Shown piece after piece: positions 33,001 to 38,597 of a stretch of DNA of 38,597 bases. The DNA is from a bacterium (GTDB lineage Bacteria > UBA6262 > WVXT01). The position numbers were made by a program. How positions within the stretch are numbered: position 1 is the first letter of the stretch; the number at the start of each line of letters is the position of its first letter. The DNA is taken from positions 1 through 38,597 of the forward strand of contig JBHIBS010000016.1 of the NCBI GenBank assembly GCA_046759165.1, given 5' to 3'.

Positions 33001-36000
33001 GTAGGCATCGTCTATCAGTCCCTGAAGCAGTTTCTTCTCTTCCGATGTCATTTCTCGGGATAGAGAACCGATGTCCTTGTGCCTCCCCCTTTTTATAACC
33101 TCAACTTTAATTCCTATCTTACGAAACAACTCTTCCATATTACCAAAGCTCATGAGTACCCCTATACTCCCTGTAATGGTTCCAGGATTGGCGACAATTT
33201 TATCTGCAGCACAAGCAATATAGTATGCCCCTGAGGCGCCCACATCGCCCATGGAGACAACAACCTTTTTCCCTTTTTCTCTTAGCCTATTTACCTCCTC
33301 ATAAATTTCCTGGACCGCACCGATGCTTCCGCCGGGACTGTTGATTCTTAAGACCACCGCCTTTATAGTGGCAATTTTACTTATCTTTCTCAACTCACTG
33401 GTGACCCTGTCAGCTCCAGGCAATAAGCGAGCCCATCCCGATGCGCGTCGAGAGATAAACAATGGCCCGTAAAGATAGACCACTGCCACTCCCTCTTTTC
33501 TGACCAAAAGTCGAGCCTTTCCCTCAACAGCTTTATCCCAAACAAGATATATACCCATTACAATAGAAACAATACATAAGAAAAGAAGAATTGCGATGAT
33601 TAAATTTTCCTTTTTCATATTCTTCTCCTTTATTAACTTTAATAACTTTTAAATTATATTCTAATTATCTAACTTTGTCAAATCATAATTTCTTGAAAGT
33701 TTGCGTCAAAAACTTTCCTACTTTTTCAAAAAAAAGCGGAAGCAATAGACCCCTTGCTTCCGCAAATTTACACTCCAGTCTTACAAGACAATTTTATCTC
33801 TTGGAGAATTGGAATCTCTTTCTTGCTTTTGGCCGTCCGGGTTTCTTTCGCTCGACCATACGGGCATCGCGCGTCAAGAATCCCTCCTTTCTCAAAATAA
33901 GCCTCGTTGGTTCGCCAACCTTGGCCAGTGCACGTGAAATTCCATGCCTTATTGCCCCTGCTTGACCACTTTTACCTCCACCGGAAACATTCGCCAAAAT
34001 ATCGAATTTATTTAGTAAATTAGTCACTTTTAGGGGTTCCATACTGAATTCCTTTAGCCCGGGCAAGCCGGAAAAGTATTTATCCAGAGGCAATCTATTG
34101 ATTACGACCTTTCCATTACCAGTTTTCAATATAACCCTGGCAATCGCTGTCTTTCTTCTGCCTACGCCCCAGATCTCTGTCACTTCGGCCATGTGTCTCC
34201 CCTCCAAAAACTTTTAAGTGAAAATTTAACGGGCTTTCTTTTCAATTTTTAGTATTTGAGGTTTCTGTGCTCCATGTGGGTGTACCTTACCCTTATATAT
34301 TTTTAATTTAGTAATTAATCTATTACTGAGTTTATTCGACGGTAACATTCCTTTGACAGCTAATCTAATTGCCTTTTCTGGGTTTTCTGCCATCAGTTTA
34401 TCGTATCGGATAAATTTTGCCCCACCCGGATAACCCGAATGGGTAAAATGGAACTTCTGTTCCAATTTTTTTCCAGTCAGTAAAACCTTCTCTGCATTAA
34501 TAATAATCACATAATCGCCTGTATCCATATGAGGAGAGAAAATGGGCTTGCCCTTGCCCCTTAATAACTCTGCTACCTTTCTTGCCAATCTTCCCAAGAC
34601 CATACCAGAACCATCAATTAAATACCATTTTTTTTCAATATTCTCCCTTTTTGGCACAAAAGTCTTCACTCTCACCCCCATTCCCCAGAAAACTAACCCC
34701 ACCCCAAAAAACTAACTCCTCTACTTAAAAACTTTCCGGATGGGGACTGCCCATGTCAAAAATTGACAAACTATCAAAAGATACTAAATTATTTTCTATT
34801 CTTTTTTCGAAGGGTAAAGCTCAAGCGCTATCGCCAAACCTAAGCAATAGCCCGCAAAGAATAAGAAGGTGCGGGGCGCTACCACCAGTGTCGATTGAGT
34901 GAGTCTAGTGATAATTCCCAATGCCAGGCTAACCAGGCTCACAATGATCGATAGTGTAATCCATTTTTTCATCTCTTACCCCCTTTAACCCAGACCTTAC
35001 CTTTTCCCCTCCCATTTGTCTGCTAACTTGTGTAAAAATTAGCAAAAAAGAGATTTTTTGTCAACTCTTTTTTAAGAAACGGTATTGCCAAGAACTGTAG
35101 GAGACTCTTTGCTTTTCTTAAAATGGGTAAAATAGATGGGAAAAAGTGCAAAACGGACTTTAACATAAATGAGAATAGGGAGCGGTAGGATGACATAGAG
35201 GAAGATAGTTGAAATATGGCGCGTTTTCCTTGCTAAAAAAATTTCTTAACGCCCTCTCTACGTTTAAGGCTCGTGCCAATCCTCTGCACCACAATATCTA
35301 CTCTTCGATTCATTGCTTTGTGTTCTTCAGTATCGTTATCCACAACAGGTTGATACTTTCCGTATCCTGCAGATGATATGCGTCCCGGAGGGAAATTTAG
35401 TGTCTCCAGTAGATAGCGGGTCACATTCGTAGCCCTCCCCGTCGATAGTTCCCAGTTGGTGGGAAATTTGGTCTTCAATTCCGGCCCAATAGAGACGTTA
35501 TCAGTGTGCCCTTCAATCCGGACATTATTTGGCACATCGACAATCTCTTTAGTAATGTCCTTCAAGATGTGTTTCGCTTCTTGGTAAATTTCGGCTCTTC
35601 CACTATCGAACATCAACTTCTCACGGAGAGAGATCACCAATCCTTTCTCATTAATTGTTAAACCGATATAGTTTTCCAAATGTTGGTCCATAACGTATGT
35701 TTCCAGTCCCTTCTTTAACTTTACCAGTTGTAATTCGTTCATAGCACTGGCTAGAGCGAACATCATAACGAAAAATATCAAAATCTGCGTCATTAGATCT
35801 GAATAAGTCAACATCCATGCAGGTGCGGTCCTTCCTACTTTTATTTCACTATCCGCTCGCCTGGGAACCCCTGGCAGAATAGCCATTATCTCTCCCCTCA
35901 AAAATAAGTCAGGCAGCTTTTTCTATGGGTGTGATCTTTTCCCCGGCTGCCCTCTTCCTCAATTGTGGAGCCAGGTAGGCCTTCAATTTGGCTTCCATAA

Positions 36001-38597
36001 TACTGGGAATCTCCCCTACCTGCAAGGAGAGAACTCCTCTAATAATAACTTCCTTGATAAATATCTCATCTTCACTGCGGCGTTTCAATTTCCCAGCAAT
36101 GGGCAAGAAGAAAAGGTAGCCAGCCACCGCGCCATAAAAAGTGGTTAAAAGGGCTACCGCCATACCAATAGCAATCCCACTCTGGTCTTCAATGCGGGCA
36201 AGCATCATAATTAGTCCCATAATTGTGCCAATCATACCAAAGGCAGGACAGTATGTGCCCAGAGTTAAGAAAATCTCCTGCCCCACACGGTGCCTCTCAC
36301 GAATGAATGTTATCTCTGTTTCTAGCTCAGTGCGGATTCTCTCCTGCTCGGCGCCATCAACAACTAATTGCACACCCTTCCTCAGAAAATCATTATTGAT
36401 CTTATTTAATTCTTTCTCAAGTTCCAATATCCCTCGCTTGTGAGCTATCTTGGTGAAATTTATAAGCTGGTTGATTAATTCAGTAGGATCTTCGTCCTTC
36501 TCTGTTAAAACTTTCTTCGCAATTTTGAAAACTCCCAAAACCTGCTTCATGGGATAATTGACCAGTGTGGCAGCAAAGGCACCCCCAAAAGTAATAAACA
36601 TTGAAGATATATCAAAGAAGCCCTTTAACCCCATCCCTCCCATTCTCATAAAGATGGCAACACCAATTAAGCTAATTCCGCTTACCACTCCTAAAATAGT
36701 GGTAATGTCCATTTCTCCTCCTATTGTGGCTTGTCACTTTTCGCTTGTCTTTTATTCCAGTTCTTAGTTCTTTTTTGATTTACCAAGCATCGGTATTCCA
36801 TAATCTTTTCAATGACTTCTGGAACCGTATCTTTCACAAGTATCTTATTTCCTGTAGCCAAAGAAATGGTTGTATCCGGCCTGGCCTGAACTGTTTCAAT
36901 CAGCTCAGCGTTTATAACTACCTCTTCTCCATTTATCTTTCTCACTTTAATCACTTTAGAATCCTTCACGACTTGAAATTGTATCCACAAAATCCCTGAT
37001 TATTCAGCGCTTACGGGTTCATTCAGCCACTGCCAAAATTTTACCATCATGCCATGCTTAGCCTTGGCTAACTGTGTGTTAATTTCTTCTTCTCTTTTTT
37101 TCTCTTCATCCCTGAGTCGCGCCTGTTTCTCTGCAATTTCAGCAAGTGCCTGCGATGCTTCCTTTTCCTTAGTTAACTCTGTTTCTAACTCTTTTATCTT
37201 TCTCTCTTTCTCACTCAGCTCTTCTGACGCTGCCATTTCCGTCTCTACTACTTTAGCCTTCATTCTTCTTATCTCTTCCTCTTTACTTCTAACCATTTCT
37301 TCCTTATCCAAAGACTCATTTTTTTCTATTTCCAATTCCTTTCTTAGCCCTTCTATCTTCTCCTCCAGTTCTGCCTTTGGTCCCTCTGATTGTTTTCTCT
37401 TCTCTTCTACCTCATTTTGAAGCTCTTCTTTTCGCCGGGAAAACTCTTCTTGCATCTGCTTTATCTTTTGCTTAATTTCATTATTCTCTTCTTCTTTTAC
37501 TTTTAACCTTTCTTCCCATTGCGACCTCTGATTTTGTAATTCTTTCTCTAGCTTTTCCTTTATTGTTTGAAATTCTCCCTCTCTCTCTTCATATAGTTCT
37601 ATCTCCAAGTTTTTGACTTTCTTTTTCATCTCTTCTCTTATCTGGTCTATTTCCTTCTCTCTCTTCTCCCGCTCATGCTTAAGTTCCATATCTTTCTGAG
37701 CTAAGAGCTCCCCAAATGAACCCACCAAGTCCCTCTGCCTTGCCAGTTCCCTTTCTAATGCTTTCAGTTCTATCTCTTTCCTCTGAAATTCACCCTCCAA
37801 TAGGTCTCCCCTTTGAGAAGTTCCTCTATACGGCAGATATTTTTGTTCCTCTAATTTACGATTCACTTCTTTTAGTCTGTCCTCAAGATATTCTGTTAAT
37901 CTCTCTAACCTCTGTTTCAGCCTTCTACTGTCTTCTTTAAATTCCTGCTCTTTATATTCCAATTCCATTTTGAATATCCTGTTCTCATCTTCTCGGCTTA
38001 TAAATTCTTTCTGTCGCATCTTCTTTTCCTCCAAAAGTTTATTCTCTAACTCATCCACTCTCTGCTCCTCTCTTCTCAATTCCTCTTCAGTTCTTGCTAT
38101 TATCTCCCCGCTACTCTTCAACATCTCTCTCAACGTTTGTTTCTCTTTCTGTACTTCCTTTTCCAAATCCTGGAGTCTGGAGGTGAGTTCTTCTTTCTTC
38201 TTAGTTTTCTCTATTTTCAAATTCTCTATTTCCTTATTCAGCTCTGCCTGGAGTTTGCTTTTTTCCTCCTCTTTAGCCTTCAGCTTAGCTTCCATCACAT
38301 CTATCTTCGGAGAGGAGATTCTCCTCTCCTCTTCCAGCTTTTCCCTTATTTCTTTCAACTCCCTTTCAACATGTCCCTTTAAGACATTTGCCTCTTCTTC
38401 TCTCTTAATTCTTTCAAGCTCGAGTTCCTCTATCCTCTGCCTCAGCTCCCTTTCTATTCTATTCTTCTCTTTCTCTTTAGCTCTGAGTCTCCCCTCAAGC
38501 TCACTCTTGACTTCCTCAAATTCTCTCTCCTTATCTTCCAATTTCGCCTTCCCTCTCTTTCTCCTCATTTTCCAACTTTCCCTTTATCTCTCTTTCC

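Follow-up and report, generated by a model that had tools for sequence, protein, structure and literature searches.

A probably decaying MotA–MotB–FlbD stator in UBA6262 as the remnant of an operon for a possible single-chain rotary motor tied to T9SS-like export

What might a flagellar-type stator do in a bacterium whose phylum has no flagellum? The question is raised by the end of a 38,597-nucleotide stretch of DNA, called the window here, from a genome (G000) of the phylum UBA6262, a name absent from the NCBI taxonomy. Three intact genes lie there on the minus strand. The stator B subunit, MotB (35233..35901; MotB_plug E 4e-11, OmpA E 2e-18), keeps the conserved Asp of the plug helix (W-x-x-T-Y-S-D-L) and a peptidoglycan-binding OmpA domain. 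The flagellar-type A subunit, MotA (35909..36712; E 5e-30), has threonines T163, T190 and T191 at PomA positions 158, 185 and 186, the triad of sodium-driven stators, and a His at the position of PomA R88. The third gene, flbD (36721..36990; PF06289, E 1e-21), has a probable start near 36955, judged against relatives. Next to it lies the 522-codon 3′ remnant of a coiled-coil gene (37000..38568, minus strand), now a pseudogene that matches no Pfam family above cut-off; in relatives its product is a long cytoplasmic protein of 1,100–1,650 residues with repeats and an amphipathic C-terminal end, for which an Atlas search gave leads all below 0.9. A 58-residue membrane protein lacking a Pfam match (34796..34972, minus strand), encoded after motB in the window's family, is a putative motor component. 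A promoter scan returned 10 sites against 4.5 expected, with none convincing upstream of flbD. The last 55 nucleotides of the window (38543..38597) are the first 55 of contig C6 of the same genome.

Relatives keep the whole operon, which begins with a cargo carrying a T9SS C-terminal domain (CTD) and continues with a c-di-GMP riboswitch, a PorV-family barrel with TPR repeats, a single-chain rotor, the coiled coil, FlbD, MotA and MotB. The first-pass annotation had taken motB, motA, flbD and the coiled-coil gene for what is left of a conserved operon with a FliF–FliG rotor in one chain, and the comparison bears this out. A PorV-like gene stands directly upstream of the rotor in 40 of 45 loci; in a mixed set it does so in 21 of 40, and in several of the other 19 that position is taken by genes for FecR-domain proteins, kinases or housekeeping functions. 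The riboswitch precedes the barrel gene at five of six loci and at all five further loci of the coiled-coil type. Two paralogous operons occur in the phylum, each with its own cargo and barrel, one combining a type A CTD with the PorV family and the other a type B CTD with a PorP/SprF-like barrel. The barrel of one operon (L021) scores 159 bits against NF033709 (cut-off 90), and a barrel on C6 of G000 scores 229; the match of the second-operon barrel to a shuttle-barrel model is below cut-off. Among the cargos, one (L051) just exceeds the TIGR04131 cut-off of 35 with 35.7 bits and another (L055) falls just under that of TIGR04183 (22.6 against 23). A complex prediction for the barrel–TPR protein (A6, 31–530) and the rotor's periplasmic domain (A7, 26–200), made without control runs, gave 0.30 against a mark of 0.32. 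A correlation of barrel and rotor distances (rho 0.90) was rejected as evidence, being explained by shared descent.

The rotor chain consists of a signal peptide, a periplasmic FliF RBM3 domain, one membrane helix and cytoplasmic FliG M and C domains, the latter identified by both Pfam and structure, often with a TPR tail; the FliG N domain is missing. That YscJ_FliF_C, FliG_M and FliG_C occur in five of five fusions holds as far as all matched, but YscJ_FliF_C is above cut-off in only three. A further scan found the three families in four of four rotor proteins (YscJ_FliF_C above cut-off in three), and neither scan gave a match to RBM1-2 (PF01514), domains that help to template FliF rings. 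The predicted RBM3 superposes on FliF S-ring structures with Z 14.1 (rmsd 2.2 Å over 96 residues), compared with 9.9 for PrgK and 9.3 for SpoIIIAG; this prediction from 95 sequences supersedes a first one from 12, which had a pTM of 0.30 and found FliF only at E 1e-3. A phmmer search of the periplasmic domain against the PDB and a scan with P0100 gave no matches. Both FliF and FliG parts are present in 96 of the best 150 clusters, and more than 100 clusters at 50% identity share one architecture. In a tree, a branch with support 93/89 separates 40 fusion FliG domains from flagellar FliG. The Arg of the flagellar torque helix is Gly in 80 of 95 rotors and Arg in two, and a second Arg is gone too; the acidic pair of the helix is retained, and all three flagellar FliG proteins of Elusimicrobiota keep the torque Arg. 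A further rotor motif, LPGxP, has its Pro in 95 of 95 sequences and aligns with the collar insertion of FliF by way of P0131, a natural full-length FliF–FliG fusion in which RBM1-2 and the Arg are both kept. No protein is known by which torque could be transmitted through the peptidoglycan layer. In flagella, FliF collar loops are described as gripping the rod and so passing on torque (PMC13626733).

That the phylum has no flagellum, as the annotation had stated, is upheld by searches for FlhA, flagellin and FliM, each found in none of 12 genomes with positive controls matching (in 4 of 14 each for FlhA and flagellin); FliG_C occurs in nine of the 12. Switch proteins were not found in the phylum, nor was CheW above cut-off in the 12 genomes. 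Earlier counts of FliG in 21 and FlhA in two of 61 Elusimicrobiota genomes have been redone on 151 genomes of Elusimicrobiota type and now stand at 55 with FliG or fusion matches and four with FlhA. Rotor and stator are both present in 54 of the 151 (two of them flagellar only) and both absent from 94, with the rotor alone in one and the stator alone in two, counts that are not independent because the genomes are kin.

In G000 no FliG_C was found, and the upstream part of the operon is indeed gone: C6:378/379, outside the window, is the junction of a deletion of about 4.1 kb in which the barrel and rotor genes were lost, so that the window's stator is orphaned. Independent contigs bridge this deletion; misassembly as the reason for the missing rotor was rejected at this junction, though not at the one at C6:721. 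Also outside the window, the cargo gene survives in its final codons (C6:665-721), and on the minus strand lies a c-di-GMP-I-GGC riboswitch (69.3 bits; Rfam cut-off 59), placed correctly by the annotation in front of the coiled-coil gene though at C6:508-582 instead of C6:507-581. The coiled-coil gene is broken by more than the truncation first described, since the 4.08-kb deletion is accompanied by one of 87 nucleotides and by two frameshifts in its 5′ part on C6:1-377. Relatives 90–95% alike carry the intact allele, and the loss is therefore recent.

The proposed tie to a T9SS has been strengthened by the finding of an SprA-like translocon gene. Its product matches TIGR04189 at E 1.7e-48 (164.8 bits, below the 200-bit cut-off), the matches being colinear and in single long frames of about 1,700–1,900 residues against 2,319 model positions; phmmer found no sequence match in the PDB. 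GldL, GldM and GldN were found in none of three phylum genomes and in two of two Bacteroidota controls, which supplies the control that the earlier report of GldM absence had lacked, though very distant homologues are possible; GldN was found in none of the 151 genomes, in a search with no control match inside it. The two control genomes and one Elusimicrobiota entry (L062) are the only loci used from an 80-locus scan (A1), which drifted to unrelated TPR proteins. Several G000 proteins exceed CTD cut-offs, matches to the PorU model are restricted to the CTD region, and an Omp85/BamA protein (E 2e-63) attests an outer membrane. In Flavobacterium, cargo and shuttle are described as encoded side by side, pairs followed by a gene for PorE (OmpA) being proposed as static and others as moved (PMC12618676). 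Contig C14 of G000 has the arrangement cargo, barrel, OmpA, as in those static pairs, which suggests that the rotor takes the place of a static anchor.

From the domains, gene order, co-occurrence, riboswitch and missing flagellar and Gld genes we infer a motor that may move, or sense by way of, a secreted adhesin rather than turn a flagellum. The reading that we tentatively place first, with a confidence just short of even, is that the relatives' operon specifies a minimal ion motor of flagellar descent, non-switching and reserved for a single surface protein. This cargo, large, adhesin-like and marked by a T9SS C-terminal signal, would pass the outer membrane by way of the SprA-like pore and remain attached to a shuttle barrel of its own, a member of the PorV or SprF family with the extra TPR tail. 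Single-chain rotors would assemble into a ring, contacted and driven by MotA–MotB with presumed sodium coupling in the window's family, and the rotating ring would engage the barrel and pull or turn the barrel–adhesin pair, c-di-GMP determining when the motor is made; extraction of one cognate shuttle is another possible task. It is conceivable, if rather doubtful, that this constitutes a new class of rotary machine, in which MotAB drives a flagellar rotor that is encoded by one gene and has a remodelled torque chemistry, and the rotor, acting through the shuttle barrel, turns or drags an adhesin exported by the T9SS. Such a class would be an independent solution to the task of GldLM–GldKN in Bacteroidota, spread through Elusimicrobiota and the sister phylum and including subfamilies with one-Asp heterodimeric stators or kinase-fused rotors.

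The exchange of the torque Arg for Gly, together with the fusion of some rotors to histidine kinases, makes mechanosensing a serious rival, albeit an unlikely one. The adhesin would bind a surface, and the load, transmitted by barrel and ring, would reach the stator and be read by a histidine kinase or diguanylate cyclase, with little or no need for continuous rotation. In two cases (L196, P0143) the rotor is preceded, as an in-frame fusion with consistent membrane topology, by a histidine kinase that has no Pfam sensor domain; a kinase gene lies between the barrel and rotor genes in four loci (L197, L198, L199, L201); and the second operon of the phylum ends with a dCache kinase and a receiver–GGDEF protein. 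Likewise, the second MotB has Asn instead of the ion-binding Asp in 10 of 20 loci with two motB genes. However, a kinase is encoded within 9 kb at just 12 of 40 loci, and operons of the window's type have no kinase. The first MotB retains its Asp and the torque helix its acidic half, and the T158 equivalent of MotA is kept in all 42 family members. Against the motor reading, the E96 equivalent is Glu in only 19 of the 42 and the window's family has His at R88; the T185 equivalent is Ala in 12. The window's Thr triad and two Rnf-type genes in G000 count in favour of a sodium-coupled motor.

The remodelled torque helix and the absence of switch proteins would also suit a scaffold that does not rotate at all, in which ring and parked stator tether the barrel–adhesin pair to inner membrane, peptidoglycan and coiled coil. 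The long, repetitive coiled coil with its amphipathic end and the simpler OmpA anchor after other cargo–barrel pairs fit this picture. We consider it improbable, however, as an anchor needs no ion channel, yet the ion-binding residues are retained in both stator subunits, and rotor and stator are kept or lost together.

About as poorly placed, or slightly worse, is the view that the motor replaces GldLM–GldKN as general energy source, drawing loaded shuttles away from the SprA-like translocon, the view toward which the first-pass annotation leaned. The T9SS is described as needing energy to extract shuttle–cargo complexes (PMC10994853), no Gld motor was found in the searches, and the SprA-like gene is present in 11 of 12 phylum genomes, in 140 of 151 genomes of Elusimicrobiota type and in all 55 with FliG or fusion matches. 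However, 85 of 96 rotor-less genomes also have it, which makes it unlikely that the motor powers general export; G000, despite having no rotor, retains it with 11 PorV-like and eight CTD proteins; and the one to five rotor copies per genome each have their own barrel, against a single SprA gene. The proposal of a non-flagellar job tied to T9SS-like export keeps its stator remnant and rotor, with a T9SS link strengthened by the SprA-like gene, and loses the motor as a general energiser; service to one dedicated barrel–adhesin pair is more likely.

It is very unlikely that the window's stator works alone. Its three genes are intact behind a surviving riboswitch, pairwise dN/dS is low (0.13 for motA, 0.18 for motB), and no rotor was found in two other genomes with a stator; the loss is recent, however, and motA has eight private amino-acid changes and five silent ones, where relatives have 11 and 40 respectively (uncorrected Fisher p 0.014), a weak hint of relaxed selection that motB and three control genes do not share. 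The orphan stator is probably in early decay, and the window is valuable as a natural deletion in which other export genes persist without the rotor. That the motor is a functionless vestige of a lost flagellum, as the flagellar origin of every part and the decay in G000 might suggest, is largely refuted by frames and gene order conserved across two phyla, the many clusters of one architecture, several paralogues per genome and two genomes (G078, G135) in which it occurs alongside complete sets of flagellar export genes.

The operon shares with the flagellar motor the RBM3 fold, FliG M and C, a 5:2-type stator with plug and OmpA domains and flbD next to motA, and differs from it in the single chain with signal peptide and one membrane helix, the missing RBM1-2, FliG N and torque Arg, the frequent TPR tail and the phylum's lack of FlhA, flagellin and FliM. 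With the T9SS and gliding machinery of Bacteroidota it shares an SprA-like gene, here shorter, cargos with a type A or B CTD whose genes stand immediately ahead of those for their cognate shuttle barrels, stators of an ion-driven family and a presumed ring. GldL, GldM and GldN, by contrast, were not found, the ring would lie in the inner membrane and derive from FliF and FliG, and the barrels have TPR tails. To our knowledge a FliF–FliG rotor works only inside flagella. A natural FliF–FliG fusion is reported to exist in Chlorobium, though the literature searches made here did not find it. Laboratory fusions in Salmonella and Vibrio are described as forming rings without FliM/FliN, with a fusion mutant motile and chemotaxis-defective (PMC6079021); unlike the rotor here, they keep full FliF and act within the flagellum. 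Orphan motAB, flbD and fliG in flagellum-less, free-living Elusimicrobiota have been called enigmatic, with gliding or twitching suggested (bioRxiv 2022.07.08.499144), in a section that leaves the FliF fusion, operon, barrel, cargo and SprA unmentioned. Neither the fusion nor the operon is described in the open-access literature searched, bioRxiv supplements such as Fig. S2 of that preprint excluded, and passages of 10.1101/765248, PMC12057145 and PMC12204202 do not mention them either.

What is new here is a near-universal SprA-like gene alongside GldL, GldM and GldN that were not found, which points to T9SS-like export across a whole phylum outside Bacteroidota, and the operon provides a concrete possible explanation for the orphan genes called enigmatic in print. 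The natural, widespread single-chain rotor with its own stator makes up a three- or four-gene system in which experiments in E. coli could ask directly whether rings assemble when RBM1-2 are missing, whether torque arises when the conserved Arg is gone and whether a rotor turns when there is no switch. The gliding motor AglRQS–AglZ of Myxococcus combines a pair of unlike B subunits with a coiled-coil partner in the cytoplasm and is TolQR-like, without a FliF/FliG ring or T9SS parts. It may in this respect resemble the loci with two motB genes, and its partner the coiled-coil gene, seen here. AglRQS is named among 5:2 motors (PMC12204202).

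The last 3.4 kb of the window carry four minus-strand genes, namely a coiled-coil frame (37000-38568), flbD, motA and motB; motA and motB each score above the cut-off for their own Pfam family, and the structures nearest to MotA are flagellar MotA and PomA (E 2e-56 to 2e-50). Neither FliG nor any piece of the expected rotor, a single-chain FliF-FliG fusion, other than its TPR was found in the assembly (G000; 1.89 Mb, 92% complete, the window being all of contig C16), in agreement with the first-pass annotation, and the window holds just the orphaned stator. A conserved 58-aa membrane protein without a Pfam match lies downstream of motB in the window's family (34796-34972). 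A Wood-Ljungdahl cluster (about 157-24675) encloses an acetyl-CoA synthase beta subunit gene interrupted by a LAGLIDADG intein (157-3921). That free-living Elusimicrobiota can have motAB, flbD and fliG while lacking the structural genes of a flagellum is already in print, with the role of these genes called unclear (bioRxiv 2022.07.08.499144). Literature searches, in mostly open-access texts without supplements, turned up no description of the fusion, of its operon or of any SprA-type system in this phylum.

In relatives, whose operons were located by searching with MotA, the genes run cargo, barrel-TPR, rotor, coiled coil, FlbD (missing from some), MotA and MotB, the order first proposed for them. 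A c-di-GMP-I riboswitch lies upstream of the barrel gene at 5 of 6 loci, and was present at 5 of 8 additional loci, these being all five coiled-coil-type ones among them. The phylum has a second operon, comprising cargo, barrel-TPR, rotor, MotA, MotB, a second MotB, a kinase and a receiver-GGDEF protein. A 53-locus set from a motif scan, biased toward the TPR-bearing type, has a PorV-like gene immediately upstream at 40 of 45 loci with sufficient DNA and MotA within 7 kb in 18/36; the corresponding figures are 21/40 and 27/40 for 40 loci hand-picked out of 138 rotor-profile matches in 151 Elusimicrobiota-type genomes. Loci of both sets are labelled almost all Elusimicrobiota or unclassified, and some loci recovered in separate searches, the MotA search included, are identical DNA, hence not independent. 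Between genomes the coiled-coil gene ranges in length from 522 to 1,655 aa; that of the intact relative L025 (6431-7656) contains 228- and 258-bp tandem repeats, and no internal repeat was seen in the window's copy. A rotor subfamily (L162, L164, L166, L167) has FecR-domain and CARDB/carboxypeptidase-regulatory proteins upstream, without a barrel there, and a TPR protein and an unknown protein of ~640 aa downstream.

The rotor consists of a signal peptide, a periplasmic domain, one membrane helix, an acidic linker and FliG M and C domains, often with added TPR. A structure model of one rotor, P0100, built from 95 sequences (pLDDT 84.5, pTM 0.52), matches FliF RBM3 with Z 14.1 among 48,161 chains searched and with E 3e-4 to 4e-3 in Foldseek. 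The FliG part is present in 122 of the best 150 clusters, in 96 of them together with the FliF part. One branch separates forty fusion FliG domains from flagellar FliG, with support of 93/89, which falls short of the tool's starred level; five rows are ungrouped and four branches are long. The torque-helix Arg of solved FliG structures is Gly in 80 of the 95 rotor sequences and a second Arg is lost too, the acidic pair being retained; flagellar FliG of three Elusimicrobiota retains the torque-helix Arg. In MotA, the R88 position is basic in 30/42 and the E96 position is Glu in only 19/42. One reading is that a single charge pair, of the kind that FliG and MotA form in the flagellar motor, was lost jointly from both sides, leaving a one-way contact. 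Both R88 and E96 matter in PomA (PMC10374538), and the torque-helix and E96 changes speak against a motor that simply repeats the flagellar mechanism. Among unusual architectures, P0131 is a natural 787-aa full-length FliF-FliG fusion retaining RBM1-2 and the torque Arg, and the long proteins P0098, P0102 and P0140 have two FliG_C domains plus FliM, DUF4116 or TPR, one of them with a weak MotA match.

FlhA and flagellin are absent from all 12 phylum genomes, as previously noted, as is FliM, in searches where positive controls rang, and CheW never rose above cut-off there. The rotor profile matches 55 of the 151 genomes and the stator profile 56, with 54 in common; in G076 and G118 the rotor match is due to flagellar FliG only, and G078 and G135 have a flagellum as well as the motor operon. 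Besides G000, two genomes have an intact stand-alone motA-motB pair without a rotor match (L259:7371-8891 and L260:7546-9192).

Compared with L025, 4.08 kb are gone within the single contig C6, whose first 55 nt are the window's last 55: C6:379 corresponds to the base preceding the barrel gene start codon and C6:377 to a point about 130 codons inside the coiled-coil gene, so the entire barrel and rotor genes are missing. The first-pass annotation was thus right that the upstream part is gone, and understated the damage to the coiled-coil gene, described as truncated, which also carries an 87-nt deletion and two frameshifts. Upstream, the riboswitch is preserved, as are the final codons of the cargo gene (C6:665-721). 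Contigs from two runs of a single study, which may be the source, bridge the junction, one contig being gapless across C6:1-265 and 3.2 kb further. In two runs of other studies, 90-95% alike, the match ends at 379/380 and coiled-coil sequence follows, as would be expected of an intact allele. At C6:721 all four runs turn off into what looks like cargo, and 749-1300 is covered in none of them; the missing cargo may therefore be either a loss specific to G000 or an artefact of joining in the assembly.

Of the 12 phylum genomes, 11 carry a SprA-like gene, this one among them (C32:2102-7132, L136; E 1.7e-48, below the model cut-off), as do 140/151 Elusimicrobiota-type genomes, small rotor-less ones included. 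GldL, GldM and GldN were not found in genome searches where positive controls rang, which supplies the control that the earlier report of GldM absence lacked, and GldN was found in 0/151. These results point to a T9SS-like export system in Elusimicrobiota-type genomes, one for which no Gld motor turned up.

The rotor-stator system is real and conserved; the tests made place it outside both the flagellar motor and the canonical T9SS, and it would work like a hybrid of the two. In Flavobacterium, complexes of shuttle and cargo are drawn off SprA with an input of energy, and the chain responsible also moves adhesins anchored on shuttles (PMC10994853). The cargo gene there adjoins the shuttle gene, and a PorE gene after them is proposed as a mark of static pairs (PMC12618676); in the motor operons, rotor and stator occupy the place of the PorE-type anchor. 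In flagella, torque reaches the rod through loops of the FliF collar (PMC13626733). The RBM3 insertion of the rotor contains an invariant LPGxP loop, which aligns with the FliF collar insertion and would, in the absence of a rod, engage the TPR tail of the barrel, the obvious candidate partner, though this contact is only a hypothesis. Rotor and MotAB would then move the barrel-held adhesin, a reading we favour tentatively, at somewhat under even chances. A sensing role, about half as likely, is the serious rival: some rotors are fused in frame to a histidine kinase in which Pfam recognises no sensor domain, or have the kinase encoded just upstream (L196:7281-9758; P0143; L201:9756-10697), and 10 of 20 two-motB loci have a second MotB with Asn for the ion-binding Asp (L041, L044, L162, L164, L166, L167, L169, L173-L175), which by sequence suggests an asymmetric, one-Asp stator. 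Sensing and moving may coexist. The motor had been thought probably tied to T9SS-like export; as a general energiser it is disfavoured because 85 of the 96 rotor-less genomes keep SprA, and since multi-copy rotors each have their own barrel we infer that a motor serves a single barrel-adhesin pair.

G000 also encodes a type B CTD cargo, a PorP/SprF-like barrel with TPR, a beta-propeller-OmpA protein and a GGDEF gene (C14:12252-22922, L140), apparently a PorE-like, static-looking module, and a PorV-family barrel that matches the BamG model below its cut-off (C79:3394-4599, L142; E 2e-25).
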